Shown here one piece after another: positions 1,027-40,590 of a DNA stretch of 44,513 nt (the stretch's first letter is position 1; each line of letters starts with the position of its first letter). Source of the stretch: a virus (lineage: Duplodnaviria; Heunggongvirae; Uroviricota; Caudoviricetes); the IMG/VR virus record IMGVR_UViG_2703718788_000013; one strand, given 5' to 3'. The position numbers were made by a program, and so were the translations under genes. Under the pieces are notes generated by a model, which worked only from the letters and a program-made list of their open reading frames with translations, was not told where the DNA came from and ran no database searches.

Positions 1027-1057
1027 CTTGGAATTACTTGGAATATTTTCTTGGAAT
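1027..1057. repeat. Three direct repeats of CTTGGAAT at the 3' end of int; candidate integrase arm-type (P') binding sites
   Basis: CTTGGAAT at 1027, 1037 and 1050, between tRNA-Ser end and int stop codon (1034-1036). Confidence 0.4.
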
Positions 1058-2059
1058 ATTATCAGGTAACGGGACATCAAGTGTTGGTGAAACTTTAACC
1101 TTTCTGTCATAGATTAGCACTTGCCCTTCGGTTTTGTGACCAGAGAAAAGTTGCTTATCCCGGCTGCTTCCTTCATAGTCTGAAATTCCTTTCGCCTTCA
1201 GATCATGAAAGGTGAAGTCGGTTAAAATACCTGAAATTTTGCCTGCGTGATTTCTTGCTTCTACCCACATTTCGTTAAAACCTTTGTACATATATCGGTT
1301 GCCATATTGATTGCTGATTACATAGGCAGATGTTGGTAACTGTTTTGCTTTTTCGATCGCCGCCTGTAATCGTGGACTCCATGCTTTTATCTGTTTTTTC
1401 CCTGTTTTCCCTTGCTGGATAAAGATCCCGTCGTTTCCAATCTGCTCCCATTTCAGTGATAACACATCGGAAACCCTCGCTGCACACAGATAGGCAATTT
1501 CCATTGCGATAAAAACAGGAAGAGGTGCAACACTTAATACTGCCTGGTATTCTTTGTCGGTTACATATCGTTCGCGGTTTTTGGCCTTGAATTTACTTAC
1601 ACCTGCACATGGGTTACCCTTCACGTACCCTCGCTCATACCCCCAACTGTAAACGCGGGACATACTGCTTTTTTCATGGTTGGCTTGCGTTTTACTCTGT
1701 TCCCCTCTCTTGTCCATGTATCGACGGATGTGTTCTGGTTTTATGGAATCTGCCGGCACCTTACCGAATACGGCAAGCAACTTTTTTTGATGTTGCAGAT
1801 AATCTTTTTGTGTTCTTGGACTGAGGTCACTGTAATAGGCGCTGGCGAGGAATTTTTCCCACAAGCGACCGAATGTCATTGCGCGATCGCGATTATTTAC
1901 AGTTTCCTCATACTTTTTCCATAAAGCAGCTAAACCATCCTTGATGGCGGTTAGTGTGACAGATTCTCTGGATGTTGGTTTCCATACATAACTATATTTA
2001 TTTGGGTATACATTTGGAGGTAATTTTTCGTGTTCAGGATTTTTCCTTCGTCTTCCCAT
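1034..2059 (-). CDS. int: Phage integrase, tyrosine recombinase (lambda Int family)
   Basis: 341-aa ORF adjacent to tRNA att site and downstream of xis; start codon overlaps xis stop (TGATG). Confidence 0.9.
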   Translation of the reverse strand: MGRRRKNPEHEKLPPNVYPNKYSYVWKPTSRESVTLTAIKDGLAALWKKYEETVNNRDRAMTFGRLWEKFLASAYYSDLSPRTQKDYLQHQKKLLAVFGKVPADSIKPEHIRRYMDKRGEQSKTQANHEKSSMSRVYSWGYERGYVKGNPCAGVSKFKAKNRERYVTDKEYQAVLSVAPLPVFIAMEIAYLCAARVSDVLSLKWEQIGNDGIFIQQGKTGKKQIKAWSPRLQAAIEKAKQLPTSAYVISNQYGNRYMYKGFNEMWVEARNHAGKISGILTDFTFHDLKAKGISDYEGSSRDKQLFSGHKTEGQVLIYDRKVKVSPTLDVPLPDNIPRKYSK

Positions 2060-5311: not shown

Positions 5312-5369
5312 AAAAAGGGCGGCAGAGCAGTCACGGAGTAAAACTGATACCGCCAAACGCCACCAGAAA
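5312..5369 (-). ncRNA. dicF: DicF-like small RNA (ftsZ translation inhibitor family) with intrinsic terminator
   Basis: Minus-strand sequence TTTTCTGGTGGCGTTTGGCGGTATCAGTTTTACTCCGTGACTGCTCTGCCGCCCTTTTT matches the remembered E. coli DicF sequence with one mismatch; GGCGG...CCGCC stem then U-run; no ORF in the region. Confidence 0.7.
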
Positions 5370-6565: not shown

Positions 6566-6796
6566 TCAGTCAGAGTTTCTTGCTAACCAGCGATGCGCGC
6601 CAGCTTCGGTTTTAAACGTTTTACTTTTGGTATACGTCATCGCGGTGAACGTGCCGTCCTGGTTGGGAAACACGCCGTACACCAGAGATTCGTTGTTGCC
6701 AAGATCGATAGTATCCATGCTGACCTCATTTCCCCTTAACGCCGGGGTAGCGGAACAAAAACCTGCTGCATAGTTAAAGTTGAACCCTGCCGTCAT
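6566..6796 (-). CDS. Hypothetical early-left protein, 76 aa (first gene after putative pL)
   Basis: ORF-track 6566..6796 minus; tightly coupled to downstream ORF. Confidence 0.5.
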   Translation of the reverse strand: MTAGFNFNYAAGFCSATPALRGNEVSMDTIDLGNNESLVYGVFPNQDGTFTAMTYTKSKTFKTEAGAHRWLARNSD

Positions 6797-6899: not shown

Positions 6900-6913
6900 G
6901 TAACAAGAGTTAC
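6900..6913. promoter_or_regulatory. OL-like operator, GTAAC-N4-GTTAC palindrome
   Basis: GTAACAAGAGTTAC between repressor gene end and first early-left ORF; same motif as the two sites in the cI-cro intergenic region. Confidence 0.5.
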
Positions 6914-6987: not shown

Positions 6988-7662
6988 TCAGTCTAAATAT
7001 TGATGTATTTGTGAAACTTTACCTTTAATAGTGTAACCACCATTCAGTTCAATGGGTTTGTAAAGCGGATTCAGTGACAGCAGATAGATGTTTGGTCCGT
7101 CAATCGCAACTTTTTTTAGTGTTACGTTCGGCGTTCCTTCCAATTGGATTAAGATTATTTTTCCCACCAGTTCTCTAATGTTACTTGAGCATGGCGTGAT
7201 CAGCACGGTAGATCCGTCGGGGATGGTTGGGAGGCCGTTAGAGTTCGTCATCGCATCTCCCTCAACGCGCAATAAAAAAGAGTTTTCAGCGGTTTTTGTC
7301 ATGACATCAACCCAATTCTTAATACCAGGAATCTCGGTTACTGGGCAACTCATATCCCAATAACCAGCCTGTTCCCACGTTAAAACGGGCAACCGGGCGA
7401 TGTTGTCACTAATGTAAAGGTACTGATTCAGACGCAGATCGTCGGTTTTATCGTGACCATCCTTTCCATAAAGAATCCATTCAGGAGATTTGGAAAGCAA
7501 TTTTGACAGCAGATGCAAATTCTCACCGTCAGGTTTTGAAGAGCCATTTTCCCATTTTGTTACGGATACGCGAGATATGCCGATTGCTTTCGCAACCTGC
7601 TGTTGAGTTAGTCCAACGTCTTTTCGACGATTCCGAATACGTTCGCTGATAGTGTTTTTCAT
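6988..7662 (-). CDS. cI: CI-like repressor (HTH_XRE N-terminal domain plus S24 LexA-like C-terminal domain)
   Basis: ORF-track 6988..7761; C-terminal region aligns by eye with lambda CI (VEGDAMT versus VEGNSMT, TLKKV versus TFKKL, QAG linker); start placed at ATG 7662 to leave a 91-bp operator region before cro (ATG 7704 is an alternative). Confidence 0.8.
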   Translation of the reverse strand: MKNTISERIRNRRKDVGLTQQQVAKAIGISRVSVTKWENGSSKPDGENLHLLSKLLSKSPEWILYGKDGHDKTDDLRLNQYLYISDNIARLPVLTWEQAGYWDMSCPVTEIPGIKNWVDVMTKTAENSFLLRVEGDAMTNSNGLPTIPDGSTVLITPCSSNIRELVGKIILIQLEGTPNVTLKKVAIDGPNIYLLSLNPLYKPIELNGGYTIKGKVSQIHQYLD

Positions 7663-7724
7663 GTAACCAATGTTACCACCAAGTGATGTTACTGTGGTTG
7701 ACATCTTTATGTAACTATTGTTAC
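7663..7724. promoter_or_regulatory. OR-like operator region with GTAAC-N4-GTTAC palindromes between cI and cro
   Basis: GTAACCAATGTTAC at 7663-7676 and GTAACTATTGTTAC at 7711-7724, plus a GTTAC half-site near 7688; divergent cI/cro starts flank it. Confidence 0.55.
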
Positions 7725-7753: not shown

Positions 7754-7969
7754 ATGTTCAAAGATGATGTTCTGCGCTATTTCAAAAAAAAGCGACTAGT
7801 AGCTGAGGCTCTTGGAATTTCACATGTGGCTGTTGTGCGGTGGAAAGCAGTTATTCCCAAACTTCGCGCAATGGAGCTGGATGAAATTACTAACGGTGAA
7901 TTGAAATACAATCCAGAACTTTACAAGAAGCAGGATAGCACCTCGAACGAAGGAAAGAATGATTCATGA
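7754..7969 (+). CDS. cro: Cro-like small HTH regulator
   Basis: 71-aa ORF divergent from cI, AGGAG ribosome-binding site at 7743-7749; HTH-like segment RLVAEALGISHVAVVRWK. Confidence 0.7.
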   Translation: MFKDDVLRYFKKKRLVAEALGISHVAVVRWKAVIPKLRAMELDEITNGELKYNPELYKKQDSTSNEGKNDS

Positions 7970-8391
7970 AAATCAAGCATGAACACATCCGCATGGCGAT
8001 GAATGCCTGGGCGCATCCGGACGGCGAAAAAATACCGGCTGCGAAAATTACCAAAGCGTATTTCGAACTGGGAATGACGTTCCCGGAACTGTATGACGAC
8101 AGCCATCCGGAAGCTCTGGCTCGCAATACTCAGAAAATTTTCCGCTGGGTAGAGAAAGACACCCCTGATGCAGTTGAAAAAATTCAGGCGTTGTTACCAG
8201 CGATCGAAAAGGCAATGCCACCTTTGCTGGTGGCCAGAATGCGCAGCCACAGTTCAGCTTATTTTCGGGAGCTGGTGGAAACGCGGGAGCGATTGGTGAG
8301 AGACGCTGATGATTTTGTCGCAGTGGCAATCGCCGGTTTCAATCAGATGAACCGTGGTGGCCCGGCAGGAAATGCTGTGGCAGTACATTGA
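7966..8391 (+). CDS. YdaT-like protein (CII-position regulator)
   Basis: 141-aa ORF translationally coupled to cro (ATGA overlap); N-terminus MKIKHEHIRMAMNAW resembles Rac YdaT as remembered. Confidence 0.5.
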   Translation: MKIKHEHIRMAMNAWAHPDGEKIPAAKITKAYFELGMTFPELYDDSHPEALARNTQKIFRWVEKDTPDAVEKIQALLPAIEKAMPPLLVARMRSHSSAYFRELVETRERLVRDADDFVAVAIAGFNQMNRGGPAGNAVAVH

Positions 8392-10238: not shown

Positions 10239-10823
10239 ATGGATAAAAAATCTAAAAATCAGATAGTAGATAGCGATATTGCACGTTTATTGCTTAAACA
10301 TAGGAAGGCTCGCAATTTGACTGTAACAGAGCTTGCTCAACGATCGGGCGTCAGTCAGGCCATGATTAGTAAGATTGAACGAGGCATCTCCAGCCCTAGT
10401 GCAACTATCCTTAGCCGCCTGGCCAACGCCATGAATGTAACGCTATCTAAACTCTTTGCAGAGCTTGAGCAACATCAGAATTCTCTGGTTCGTTTTGCTC
10501 ATCAGCAACAGCACTGGACGGATGAGCAATCAGGCATCACTCGTTGGTCTTTGTCTCCTGCGGGGGCATGCCCGGAACTGATCAAAGTTGAAATTCCTGC
10601 AATGGGTGAGTTGACGATACCCGCCTCCGCAAATGAGCATCTTTCCGGGCAAACGCTTTGGGTGATGAGTGGTAGCCTTGATTTTCGAGTCAAAAATCAG
10701 ACCCATCATTTACGTGCCGGTGACTGTCTTGCCCTTACCTTTGCAAGCGAGTACCAAATGAGCAATCCAGATAGTGAGCAGAGCTGTTCTTACATCGTGG
10801 CTTTTAGCCAAAAAAATCAATGA
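10239..10823 (+). CDS. Transcriptional regulator, HTH_XRE N-terminus plus cupin-like C-terminal domain
   Basis: ORF-track 10038..10823; ATG at 10239 (MDKKSKNQ); HTH segment LTVTELAQRSGVSQAMISKIERG. Confidence 0.7.
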   Translation: MDKKSKNQIVDSDIARLLLKHRKARNLTVTELAQRSGVSQAMISKIERGISSPSATILSRLANAMNVTLSKLFAELEQHQNSLVRFAHQQQHWTDEQSGITRWSLSPAGACPELIKVEIPAMGELTIPASANEHLSGQTLWVMSGSLDFRVKNQTHHLRAGDCLALTFASEYQMSNPDSEQSCSYIVAFSQKNQ

Positions 10824-10843: not shown

Positions 10844-11287
10844 TTACATGTTATTGGCCATTCTCAGATGCAACAAGGGGTATGGCCTTCCCTGATTATC
10901 CAGATCGGAACGCCCTGATACCTGAAACCCCATATGCTGATAAAACCCTACAGCCTGCTGGTTTTGTTCATTTACATCAACGCTTAGCTCTGGATGCAGC
11001 GCCAGTGCATGAGAGATCAAACGTTTTCCGACGCCAAGTCCGCGAGCAGAGCCTGCTACAAAAAGTGCCTCCAGATGGCCCTTATGCAAAAACATAAATC
11101 CTAGCGGTTGGTCATCCTGATTTGTTGCAACCCATACAGGAGTTTCTGAGAAAAAGCCGACAACTTCTTTTTCGATTTCTTGTCGGTCATGACCTGTAAG
11201 AAAGTCGTGGGTAGCATCCACTGAACTCTTCCAGATTTGTATGATCTCATCTGCTTCAGATGGTCGTGACATTCTGATATCTAACAT
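10844..11287 (-). CDS. GNAT-family N-acetyltransferase
   Basis: 147-aa ORF with acetyl-CoA binding-like segment (ARGLGVGKRLI); convergent with the HTH-cupin gene. Confidence 0.7.
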   Translation of the reverse strand: MLDIRMSRPSEADEIIQIWKSSVDATHDFLTGHDRQEIEKEVVGFFSETPVWVATNQDDQPLGFMFLHKGHLEALFVAGSARGLGVGKRLISHALALHPELSVDVNEQNQQAVGFYQHMGFQVSGRSDLDNQGRPYPLLHLRMANNM

Positions 11288-11775: not shown

Positions 11776-11986
11776 TTTCATATTGGCGAGGTAACGGTAG
11801 TTAAGTAGAATGGCTGTGGGTGCTTGAGGCTATCTGCCTCGGGCATGAACACCAACGGCAGATAGAGAAAAGCCCCAGTTAACATTACGCGTCCTGCAAG
11901 ACGCTTAACATTAATCTGAGGCCAATTTCATGCTAGACACATGTAGGTTAGCCTCTTACGTGCCGAAAGGCAAGGAGAAGCAGGCT

Positions 11987-12142
11987 ATGAAGCAGCAAAA
12001 GGCGATGTTAATCGCCCTGATCGTCATCTGTTTAACCGTCATAGTGACGGCACTGGTAACGAGGAAAGACCTCTGCGAGGTACGAATCCGAACCGACCAG
12101 ACGGAGGTCGCTGTCTTCACAGCTTACGAACCTGAGGAGTAA
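11987..12142 (+). CDS. hok: Hok/Gef-family type I toxin
   Basis: 51-aa product MKQQKAMLIALIVICLTVIVTALVTRKDLCEVRIRTDQTEVAVFTAYEPEE, near-identical to remembered HokD/RelF; AAGGAGAAG ribosome-binding site; 8-bp hairpin at 12151-12170. Confidence 0.85.
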   Translation: MKQQKAMLIALIVICLTVIVTALVTRKDLCEVRIRTDQTEVAVFTAYEPEE

Positions 12143-14907: not shown

Positions 14908-14983
14908 GGCCCTTTAGCTCAGTGGTGAGAGCGAGCGACTCATAATCGCCAGGTCGCTGGTTCAAATCCAGCAAGGGCCACCA
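14908..14983 (+). tRNA. tRNA with CAT anticodon, ileX-like (tRNA-Ile2 or Met)
   Basis: 76-nt cloverleaf, acceptor GGCCCTT/AAGGGCC, anticodon loop CTCATAA, CCA end; resembles remembered E. coli ileX. Confidence 0.8.
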
Positions 14984-14984
14984 A

Positions 14985-15061
14985 CCGCCACTAGCTCATC
15001 AGGAAAGAGCGTCAACCCTTTAAGTTGAGTGTGCGAGGTTCGAGTCCCCGGTGGCGGTCCA
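14985..15061 (+). tRNA. tRNA-like gene, apparent anticodon TTT (Lys-like), non-canonical features
   Basis: Acceptor CCGCCAC/GTGGCGG, anticodon stem TCAAC/GTTGA, loop CCTTTAA (C at position 33), T-loop TTCGAGT, CCA end; A-C mismatch in T-stem. Confidence 0.55.
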
Positions 15062-15063
15062 GT

Positions 15064-15139
<76 letters not shown>

Positions 15140-15142
15140 TAT

Positions 15143-15217
<75 letters not shown>

Positions 15218-16255: not shown

Positions 16256-16659
16256 AGGTCTGCTCCGGCAGGCTTTTTTTATTCCGGCATATATAACTAT
16301 GGAGTATTGCGACAACCTGATAAAAGTCTGCATATCGCGATCCAACGGTAGAAGCGATAAACGGGCTGAGCGATATGTTTCCAGAGGAGAAGAGGTTGAG
16401 CGATACGAAGAAACAGCTAAGTATATTAAGAGAATGTTAATGTGCTTCATTGCTGATCAGAAGCTATCGGGATAATCATCAGTTTTTTGTATTGAGGCTC
16501 GCTACGGCGGGCCTTTTTCACATCCGCGTCACGCCCGGCGCACATCACATCAGATAACGCTATACAAAAGGCATCTTCGGGTGCCTTTGATGGGGGGGCG
16601 GGCCGCTGGTGGCTTTTTTTGTTTCCATTACACAGCCCCCGCATCTGCGAGGTGGGGTT

Positions 16660-18320: not shown

Positions 18321-18635
18321 ATGCTACATGATCACCTGGCTGAATGTCTGGAGAAAAAAGGACTGTACCGGAGAGCGGCTGAACGATGGGCAAAAGTGAT
18401 GGTACAGCTAAGTGATGATCAGAAAAGAAAAATCGCGGCACAGAAACGAGCAGAGTGTTTGCGTAAGGCGCGCCGGACTTCGGTTGCACCGGTGAATCTG
18501 ACAGAAATAAAGCAAGCGGTCAACAGACTACATTCTGAGTTGGGAATGGGATTTGAAGAGCGGCGGATATTCCGACGATATAAAGGGACAGGAGAACAGA
18601 ATACGTCCGGAAACGCGCGGTCAAAAAAATGCTAA
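18321..18635 (+). CDS. PerC-family transcriptional regulator (Pch-like)
   Basis: 104 aa; GGAGG 7 nt upstream; N-terminal ...LEKKGLYRRAAERW... matches remembered PerC/Pch pattern. Confidence 0.6.
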   Translation: MLHDHLAECLEKKGLYRRAAERWAKVMVQLSDDQKRKIAAQKRAECLRKARRTSVAPVNLTEIKQAVNRLHSELGMGFEERRIFRRYKGTGEQNTSGNARSKKC

Positions 18636-39999: not shown

Positions 40000-40590
40000 A
40001 TGCCATTGATAACATCCAGCCTTTCATCAAATGTTGCTTTGCAGAGTATTGAAATATTACGTGAAGCTGCCAGACAAAACCTGATTACGAAAGCTATTAC
40101 TATAAATGGGCAGAAAGTTGGTATTCATTATTATCACCGCCCTGACGTTTTTCTAGTTTCTGGTTGTAAGGATGGGATGTTAAAAACATTATTAGAGTTA
40201 GGGTTAAATGGTAGCAATGAGTCAGCCAAAAGGCTTCGTTCATGGCAAATTTCCTCTGTAATTGATACTCATCTGAGTTTTTTACCATTAGGTATATGCT
40301 ATAAAATACTTTCAAGTTCTTTTCCTGTACATTCGGAAGAGGTTTTTTTTCCAGAAGAACATCTCAAGTGTCCAATAATATTAGATGCTCCAGATAATGG
40401 TGTTTTTATAAAGAACTCTGTAAGTGCAAAAGTTTGTAACCTATATGATAAAAATGCAATGTTAAAGTTAGTTATATCTGGTTCTCCACATCCATTAAGT
40501 AGAGAGCCAATAACAGAATCAATGATTATGAGAAAAGATGAATGTTATTTTGATCCCAAAACAGAGTCTTTTGTTGTAAATGATGTTTAA
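40000..40590 (+). CDS. nleG: NleG-like type III effector (U-box E3 ubiquitin ligase family)
   Basis: 196 aa in AT-rich DNA; C-terminal region HLKCPIILDAPDNGVFIKNSVSAKVCNLYD...SPHPLSREPIT resembles NleG U-box domain as remembered. Confidence 0.6.
   Translation: MPLITSSLSSNVALQSIEILREAARQNLITKAITINGQKVGIHYYHRPDVFLVSGCKDGMLKTLLELGLNGSNESAKRLRSWQISSVIDTHLSFLPLGICYKILSSSFPVHSEEVFFPEEHLKCPIILDAPDNGVFIKNSVSAKVCNLYDKNAMLKLVISGSPHPLSREPITESMIMRKDECYFDPKTESFVVNDV

Follow-up and report, generated by a model that had tools for sequence, protein, structure and literature searches.

The lambdoid prophage contained in the 44,513 nucleotide stretch of DNA analysed here (hereafter the window) encodes a CI-type immunity repressor in which the nucleophilic serine of the C-terminal S24 protease fold is replaced by alanine. 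The substitution is confirmed by alignment, is fixed in large clades of related repressors, lies in a domain under purifying selection and is flanked by an intact operator, promoter, Cro and YdaT switch. We consider it probable (roughly 70%) that this protein is a natural CI of the ind-minus type, in which a dead protease domain would be kept for dimerisation and cooperativity, with induction by stochastic switching or by a factor acting in trans.

The repressor gene occupies positions 6988..7662 on the minus strand and encodes 224 amino acids plus a stop codon, as identified from the list of open reading frames, Pfam and the match to lambda CI; the frame ending at 6988 reads ...LLRVEGDAMTNSNG... 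on that strand. An HTH_3 domain at the N-terminus (7474-7638, minus strand; Pfam E = 2e-16) is joined by a linker to a C-terminal Peptidase_S24 fold (7015-7389, minus strand; Pfam E = 2.5e-17) that covers profile positions 1-115 of 116, which is the full-length architecture of lambda CI. A phmmer search of PDB sequences matched the full-length lambda repressor 3bdn (E = 9.8e-14), and the same structure was the best PDB match of the AlphaFold model of the repressor (mean pLDDT 77.8) according to Foldseek. The model matched fragments of the lambda C-terminal domain with a TMt of 0.64, and its N-terminal domain matched P22 c2 with a TMt of 0.93-0.95 at 41–42% identity. [quoted passage not shown] Translation probably begins at the ATG at 7662-7660, giving the 224 residue product, because more distant homologues open at this methionine and because the longer PGAP start would translate the operator GGTAACATTGGTTACATG between cI and cro as GNIGYM. 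We therefore disfavoured the longer TTG and PGAP starts, the '..GNIGYM' N-terminal extension of the latter being translated operator. The extension in the RefSeq/PGAP gene model (MSTTVTSLGGNIGYM...) corresponds to positions 7663-7704 of the window and overlaps this operator. Across homologues, the apparent protein conservation of 'NIGYM' is conservation of operator DNA, which suggests a shared operator specificity (homoimmunity) among clusters carrying alanine and clusters carrying serine.

An earlier note on this DNA had claimed that the C-terminal domain follows lambda CI motif for motif, with the cleavage site and dyad lysine in place and an alanine at the nucleophile position, and had proposed alignment with lambda CI, LexA and UmuD as a check. 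The phmmer alignment to 3bdn agrees, placing 'vegdamt' of the repressor over 'vegnsmt' of lambda, 'eqagyw' over 'vqagmf' (A111-G112) and 'vtlkkv' over 'ftfkkl' (K192). Reading of the minus strand (...GTT GAG GGA GAT GCG ATG ACG..., VEGDAMT) also bore out the GCG codon at 7252..7254, one base away from TCG, which encodes Ala137. When the repressor was aligned by MAFFT to lambda CI, LexA of E. coli and UmuD, Ala137 fell under the nucleophiles S149, S119 and S60, respectively. In the same alignment the canonical cleavage-site dipeptide Ala99-Gly100 (GCT GGT, 7363..7368, minus strand) fell under lambda A111-G112, LexA A84-G85 and UmuD C24-G25, and the general-base lysine of the Ser-Lys dyad, Lys183 (AAA, 7114..7116, minus strand), under K192, K156 and K97. 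A further alignment of 103 sequences returned the same columns for all three features, and the possibility of a misaligned catalytic serine elsewhere in the repressor was ruled out by these three independent alignments. By structure the protein is a member of the S24 family, but it is without the catalytic nucleophile of that family: the lysine and the Ala-Gly bond are retained and the serine of the G-x-S-M motif is absent. LexA S119A and lambda CI S149A are non-cleavable, and Ala137 should for this reason abolish autoproteolysis. By analogy with these two mutants, we infer that the window repressor would be incapable of self-cleavage, whether stimulated by RecA or by alkaline conditions. The earlier note had predicted the same, and the sequence evidence supports its reading.

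To determine how widespread the substitution is we searched complete E. coli genomes by megablast and found the repressor gene in 702 of 5426, with a median of one copy of the repressor family per carrier. The catalytic codon was typed with 55-nt queries whose variable base was at position 28, which forced any 28-nt seed to span it. GCG was found in 686 of the 702 carriers and TCG in 14 (Ala:Ser about 49:1). Only three of the GCG genomes matched the query with window-type flanks, because the flanks are polymorphic, and the other 683 matched the query with the flanks of the major haplotype; TCG on the major haplotype was not found in any complete E. coli genome with this query. Serine was carried by O55:H7 strains (CB9615, RM12579, DEC5A/D and TB182A) and by eight genomes whose variant is 87% identical. 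Between the O55:H7 protein and the window repressor there are 13 residue differences, among them the alanine to serine change at the catalytic position. Carriers of the alanine allele include ST131, ETEC, EPEC/EHEC-type strains and E. albertii.

Among related proteins, the state of the catalytic residue is uniform within each 90% cluster. Alanine is present in 15/15 members of the cluster shared by E. coli and E. albertii, in 9/9 members of a second E. coli cluster (89% identity) and in 15/15 members of a Salmonella enterica cluster (70% identity), in which the codon is GCA. Serine is present in 15/15 members of a third E. coli cluster (87% identity), in 5/5 members of an Enterobacter cluster (67% identity) and in all relatives more distant than the latter in the cluster comparison. 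The comparison of codons across related repressors called for in the earlier note thus returns GCG as the dominant form, with natural TCG alleles and a GCA cluster in Salmonella. The alanine allele predominates in an immunity module that is widespread, and it is not a private mutation; the same GCG codon in 686 complete genomes, together with natural TCG alleles in 14, led us to reject a sequencing error.

Serine is the ancestral state at this position, since the more distant relatives all carry it. A neighbour-joining tree requires at least three changes at the catalytic codon; on the same tree the average column of the C-terminal domain takes 2.8 steps. Variable-site patterns among the repressor alleles conflict with one another, which suggests recombination among alleles. 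With the average column at 2.8 steps and this recombination signal, we dropped convergent serine to alanine change as proof of selection, and would claim at most two to three Ser/Ala change events, or recombination. The serine codon of O55:H7 could have come by gene conversion from the 87% cluster, but no patch resembling that cluster (cluster 3) was found around the codon. Evidence on selection comes from substitution rates (Nei-Gojobori). Between two alanine alleles the dN/dS of the C-terminal domain is 0.06 (12 non-synonymous and 44 synonymous differences), equal to that of a pair of serine alleles (0.05), and the main alanine clade shows one non-synonymous against nine synonymous differences. 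The linker of the repressor evolves far faster (dN/dS about 0.5). [quoted passage not shown]

These data also bear on whether the alanine means what it appears to mean. It might mark a sequencing or assembly artefact or a pseudogene, or another residue might act as nucleophile and preserve autocleavage, a formal possibility for which the Thr two residues later (GDAMT) is available. The first two are opposed by the identical codon in 686 independent complete genomes, the intact frame and the low dN/dS. The third is opposed by the presence of the same Thr in the GDSMT motif of serine alleles, so that there is no compensating change, and by the established non-cleavability of the S119A and S149A mutants. 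We regard all of these as extremely improbable.

Related HTH-S24 repressors have lost the serine fairly often, which lowers the surprise of its absence here. Among full-length representatives of 50% clusters, the 101 closest to the repressor include 15 without it (5 Thr, 4 Ala and 6 others) and 86 that retain it. The lysine is kept in 94 of the 101, including most of those without serine, and the Ala-Gly dipeptide in 61. Self-cleavage features have been lost in different ways in the family: in proteins P0010-P0015 from Symbiopectobacterium and Arsenophonus (about 50% identity) the Ser-Lys dyad is kept and IS or LS replaces Ala-Gly, and in P0017 from Arsenophonus nasoniae the G-D-S-M motif is wholly gone. 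We also noted an HTH-only truncated repressor of 132 amino acids in E. coli (P0009), 88% identical over the N-terminal 57% and present in one complete genome, which is a possible intermediate toward the short DicA-like repressors.

Two perfect GTAAC-N4-GTTAC palindromes (7663-7676 and 7711-7724), located by pattern search, form the right operator region (7663..7724). By reading of the sequence, the second of these lies within the spacer of a PR-like promoter, TTGACA (7699-7704)-18-TACCCT. A left operator, GTAACAAGAGTTAC (6900..6913), lies inside a PL-like promoter on the minus strand (TTGACT-17-TACCTT), situated between the cI terminator hairpin and the DUF1391 gene that lies downstream. The palindrome occurs four times in the window against 0.55 expected, a count reached in none of 100 shuffles, and each promoter-proximal copy sits in the spacer of a predicted TTGAC(A/T)-17/18-TACC(C/T)T promoter-like element. 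Divergent from cI is a gene for a Cro-type lytic repressor (7754..7969, plus strand) of the P22_Cro family (Pfam PF14549, 2.9e-16) with weak similarity to YdaS, followed by a YdaT-family (YdaT_toxin) gene (7966..8391, plus strand; PF06254, 7.4e-10). The DUF1391 (YdfA-like) gene (6566..6718, minus strand; PF07151, 3.5e-29), the first conserved gene of the PL operon, adjoins the repressor in both alanine and serine prophages. The region thus contains the divergent cI and cro genes, the repeated palindromic operators over promoters and the left operator of a lambdoid switch, and the place of a CII-type regulator downstream of cro is taken by YdaT, which is known from the literature as a functional analogue of CII (PMC8630535). 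On this evidence the switch around the alanine repressor looks intact and functional.

The same layout, with a CI-like repressor divergent from a Cro/YdaS-like gene and then YdaT, is found in the PaaR2-YdaS-YdaT module of the cryptic prophage CP-933P of E. coli O157:H7 (PMC8630535). The PaaR2 repressor is without a functional peptidase motif, and the system is reported not to respond to mitomycin C and to adopt bistable heritable states, which makes it a precedent for stochastic switching (PMC8630535). The two differ in that PaaR2 has no peptidase motif at all and the paaA2-parE2 toxin-antitoxin genes come after it, whereas in the window repressor the complete S24 fold, the Ala-Gly site and the lysine are preserved, and the terminator, PL and DUF1391 lie downstream of it, with no toxin-antitoxin pair.

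Non-cleavable repressors that are inactivated by an antirepressor are known from coliphages 186 (CI/Tum) and N15 (CB/AntC). Among enterobacterial prophages, GfoR and GtgR of the Gifsy phages, DicA of Qin and RacR of Rac are likewise non-cleavable lysogeny repressors (PMC3121763), and crosstalk of the Gifsy type provides a precedent for an antirepressor acting in trans (PMC3121763). All of these repressors are short (about 135–150 amino acids), have no S24 domain and are paired with a LexA-controlled antirepressor encoded by their own prophage, whereas the window repressor has 224 amino acids and a complete S24 domain, and neither an antirepressor nor a LexA box was found in its prophage. The earlier note had seen no antirepressor in the window, and this observation was borne out. 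When at least ten unannotated early open reading frames were scanned with PHROGs and Pfam, no antirepressor family was hit; the scans returned only families of unknown function, a replication initiator, a Ren-like protein, an HTH plus cupin regulator and a GNAT protein. Nor does RefSeq list an antirepressor for the near-identical 377323_2f prophage. LexA boxes were no more frequent than chance, with 16 matches to CTGT-N8-ACAG in the window against 14.2 expected, and the best hit of a LexA position-specific scoring matrix built from about 20 sites lay inside mtfA and scored 15.4 bits, whereas shuffled sequences reached up to 15.8 bits.

Indirect SOS induction, in which a LexA-controlled antirepressor elsewhere in the genome (e.g. 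in a co-resident prophage) inactivates the non-cleavable repressor, therefore has to be weighed. Antirepressor induction and prophage crosstalk are established for non-cleavable repressors, including those of the DicA/RacR type in Qin/Rac-like prophages (PMC3121763), and the horizontal spread of the alanine module among prophages suggests some route of induction. In the 44.5 kb window, however, neither an antirepressor family nor a LexA box was found, and the three genes that alone accompany the module consistently (DUF1391, cro and ydaT) are linked to serine alleles just as closely. We consider this route unlikely.

The sequence around the cleavage site raises a further alternative. Ala-Gly and its flanks (LPVLTWEQAG-W) are invariant across alanine clusters down to 70% identity, which would be explained if the intact bond were cut in trans by a serine-bearing S24 partner, such as a homoimmune repressor or a LexA-like protein, or by another protease; intermolecular cleavage by the C-terminal domains of LexA and CI is known. 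However, with a median of one family copy per carrier genome a homologous serine partner is usually absent, the cleavage-site strand forms part of the domain fold, its conservation may be structural, and one member of the Salmonella cluster has VG instead of AG. Cleavage in trans is in our estimation very improbable. The strict conservation of Ala-Gly and lysine in alanine alleles might still reflect some residual role related to proteolysis, although for the lysine this argument is weakened by its retention in 94 of the 101 relatives, including most of those without serine.

The window is a Qin/Rac-like lambdoid prophage located at tRNA-Ser/mtfA in E. coli. Its first 16.6 kb are identical to E. 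coli 377323_2f (NZ_CP039404.1) except for one base; after about position 16600 the two lose register, indicating either an indel or that different segments lie between Q and the lysis genes. The left arm is Qin/Rac-like, with DUF1391, the DicF small RNA, kil, a RecE-like exonuclease and an integrase. DicF (5317-5368, minus strand; Rfam RF00039, 76 bits) has kil and a truncated dicB nearby, and together these features mark a left arm of Qin type in which the S24 repressor fills the dicA slot of an arrangement that otherwise comprises a ydfA-like gene, DicF, kil/dicB and a recE-like exonuclease gene. The early and middle regions encode a replication initiator, DUF977, hok/sok, DUF968, RusA, Q and a tRNA block, and the late regions encode lysis, head and tail genes. 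The type I toxin-antitoxin locus hok/sok (11818-12142; Rfam sok, 115 bits) contains a hokD-like open reading frame (11930-12142), and four tRNA genes (Met/Ile-CAT, Lys, Thr and Gly; 14908-15217) lie just downstream of Q. Between the replication genes and hok is a convergent pair comprising an HTH_3 regulator with a weak cupin domain (10239-10823, plus strand), which could be a small-molecule-sensing regulator, and a GNAT acetyltransferase (10844-11287, minus strand). We regard this pair as cargo outside the switch because it is absent from the other examined prophages with the same immunity module. A PerC-like activator is encoded at 18321-18635. Beyond the tail fibres, at the right end, are genes for three type III secretion effectors: an NleG family member (40000-40590), a HECT-type E3 ubiquitin ligase (40641-43013) and NleC (43267-44259). 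The integrase open reading frame (341 aa; 1034-2059, minus strand) retains a C-terminal ...GHKTEGQVLIYDRK motif with the presumed catalytic Tyr. The integrase carries a 'frameshifted' label in the near-identical RefSeq genome, as do the integrases of other prophages at the serU and yccA sites; the att junction beside tRNA-Ser (892-981) may have given rise to this label artefactually.

The same alanine module was found in prophages at serU/mtfA, ompW and yccA that differ in their integrases and replication genes. The yccA prophages occur in O111:H8, E2855 and cluster 2, and the ompW prophage occurs in ST131, where int and xis are intact. This distribution at three sites indicates that the module is mosaic and moved horizontally after acquiring the alanine. 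Some carrier prophages are decayed: IS1203 sits in recE, the exonuclease gene, or the gene for Q or DUF977 is frameshifted. The best phage homologues of the repressor are 36–43% identical, and none above 43% was found among 50,697 phage records. Absence from phage collections was dropped as evidence of non-inducibility, since the serine clusters are equally absent.

In another explanation, the change would be a grounding mutation of a prophage on its way to domestication: host selection would have fixed an ind-minus allele, leaving an essentially cryptic, vertically inherited island kept for immunity and effector cargo. The carrier defects just described, the absence of close relatives from phage records and the effector genes at the right end all favour this alternative, the second without discriminating, as it applies equally to serine alleles. 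Against a grounded element stand the intact repressor, operators, cro and ydaT under strong purifying selection, the apparently complete replication, Q, lysis, head and tail modules of the window prophage, the intact int and xis of the ST131 copy, and the occurrence of the module at three attachment sites and in two species. On balance we think grounding a somewhat doubtful explanation.

The natural ind-minus reading that we favour would work as follows. Ala137 would prevent self-cleavage, so that activated RecA could not inactivate the repressor directly, and the dead protease domain would be retained as a module for dimerisation and for cooperative repression at the paired operators. The prophage would in consequence be shielded from SOS as far as its own repressor is concerned, and the allele would be a natural ind-minus one. 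Lytic development could then be reached through rare stochastic or physiological flips of a bistable CI/Cro-YdaT switch or, alternatively, through an inactivating factor from outside the window. The predominance of alanine (about 49:1) is consistent with selection at the level of the host for lysogens that keep their cargo without DNA-damage lysis. This prevalence may also owe something to oversampled clones such as ST131 and to vertical persistence of cryptic prophages, as several carrier prophages are decayed. A counterpoint to the ind-minus reading is that a totally uninducible phage would spread poorly: the movement of the module between prophages and into E. albertii after acquisition of the alanine implies that the carrier phages, or phages with which they recombined, stayed mobile. 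It is also imaginable, if quite improbable, that the single-nucleotide TCG to GCG difference acts as a reversible toggle of SOS inducibility and that the dead form still interacts with activated RecA or with a protease in trans, serving as decoy, sensor or substrate. The two states would then be a long-lived polymorphism within one homoimmune lambdoid family of E. coli, E. albertii and Salmonella, and Ala-Gly and lysine would be kept for this purpose; prophage control would then be exerted in a new way, through an S24 pseudo-enzyme.

As a natural ind-minus allele the window repressor has its closest counterparts in the laboratory. Lambda CI S149A, LexA S119A and the classical ind-minus mutants carry the same kind of change, serine to alanine in an intact HTH-S24 repressor with its Ala-Gly bond, and stable repression without RecA-stimulated cleavage is expected of them. 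Unlike these mutants, which were engineered or selected, the alanine allele is natural and fixed in several clusters (E. coli, E. albertii and Salmonella), and it persists in 686 of 5426 complete E. coli genomes under purifying selection. The canonical cleavable CI proteins of lambda, P22 (c2), phage 21 and Stx phages share the two-domain architecture and motifs of the window repressor. In Stx phages, CI clades I–VII all keep the catalytic serine (PMC8951638), in contrast to the repressor described here. In full-text searches of the literature, no natural Ser-to-Ala CI was described, and the RefSeq accession numbers were mentioned in no paper. Non-cleavable repressors as such are already known, and a natural Ser-to-Ala CI that retains its S24 domain is a further variant. 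Together with the 15 of 101 related clusters without serine, it suggests that S24 pseudo-protease repressors are an under-described class.

If the prediction is true, about 13% of complete E. coli genomes (one in eight) carry a lambdoid prophage with a repressor that is blind to RecA. Many of the carrier prophages hold virulence cargo, in the window NleG, the HECT-type E3 ligase and NleC, and the finding would bear on the mobilisation of prophage virulence genes by SOS-inducing antibiotics, or on its failure. It would equally bear on bioinformatic calls that equate 'HTH + S24' with 'SOS-inducible'. The near-identical serine (O55:H7) and alanine alleles, with catalytic codons one base apart, amount to a natural experiment that permits a direct test of selection on prophage inducibility.
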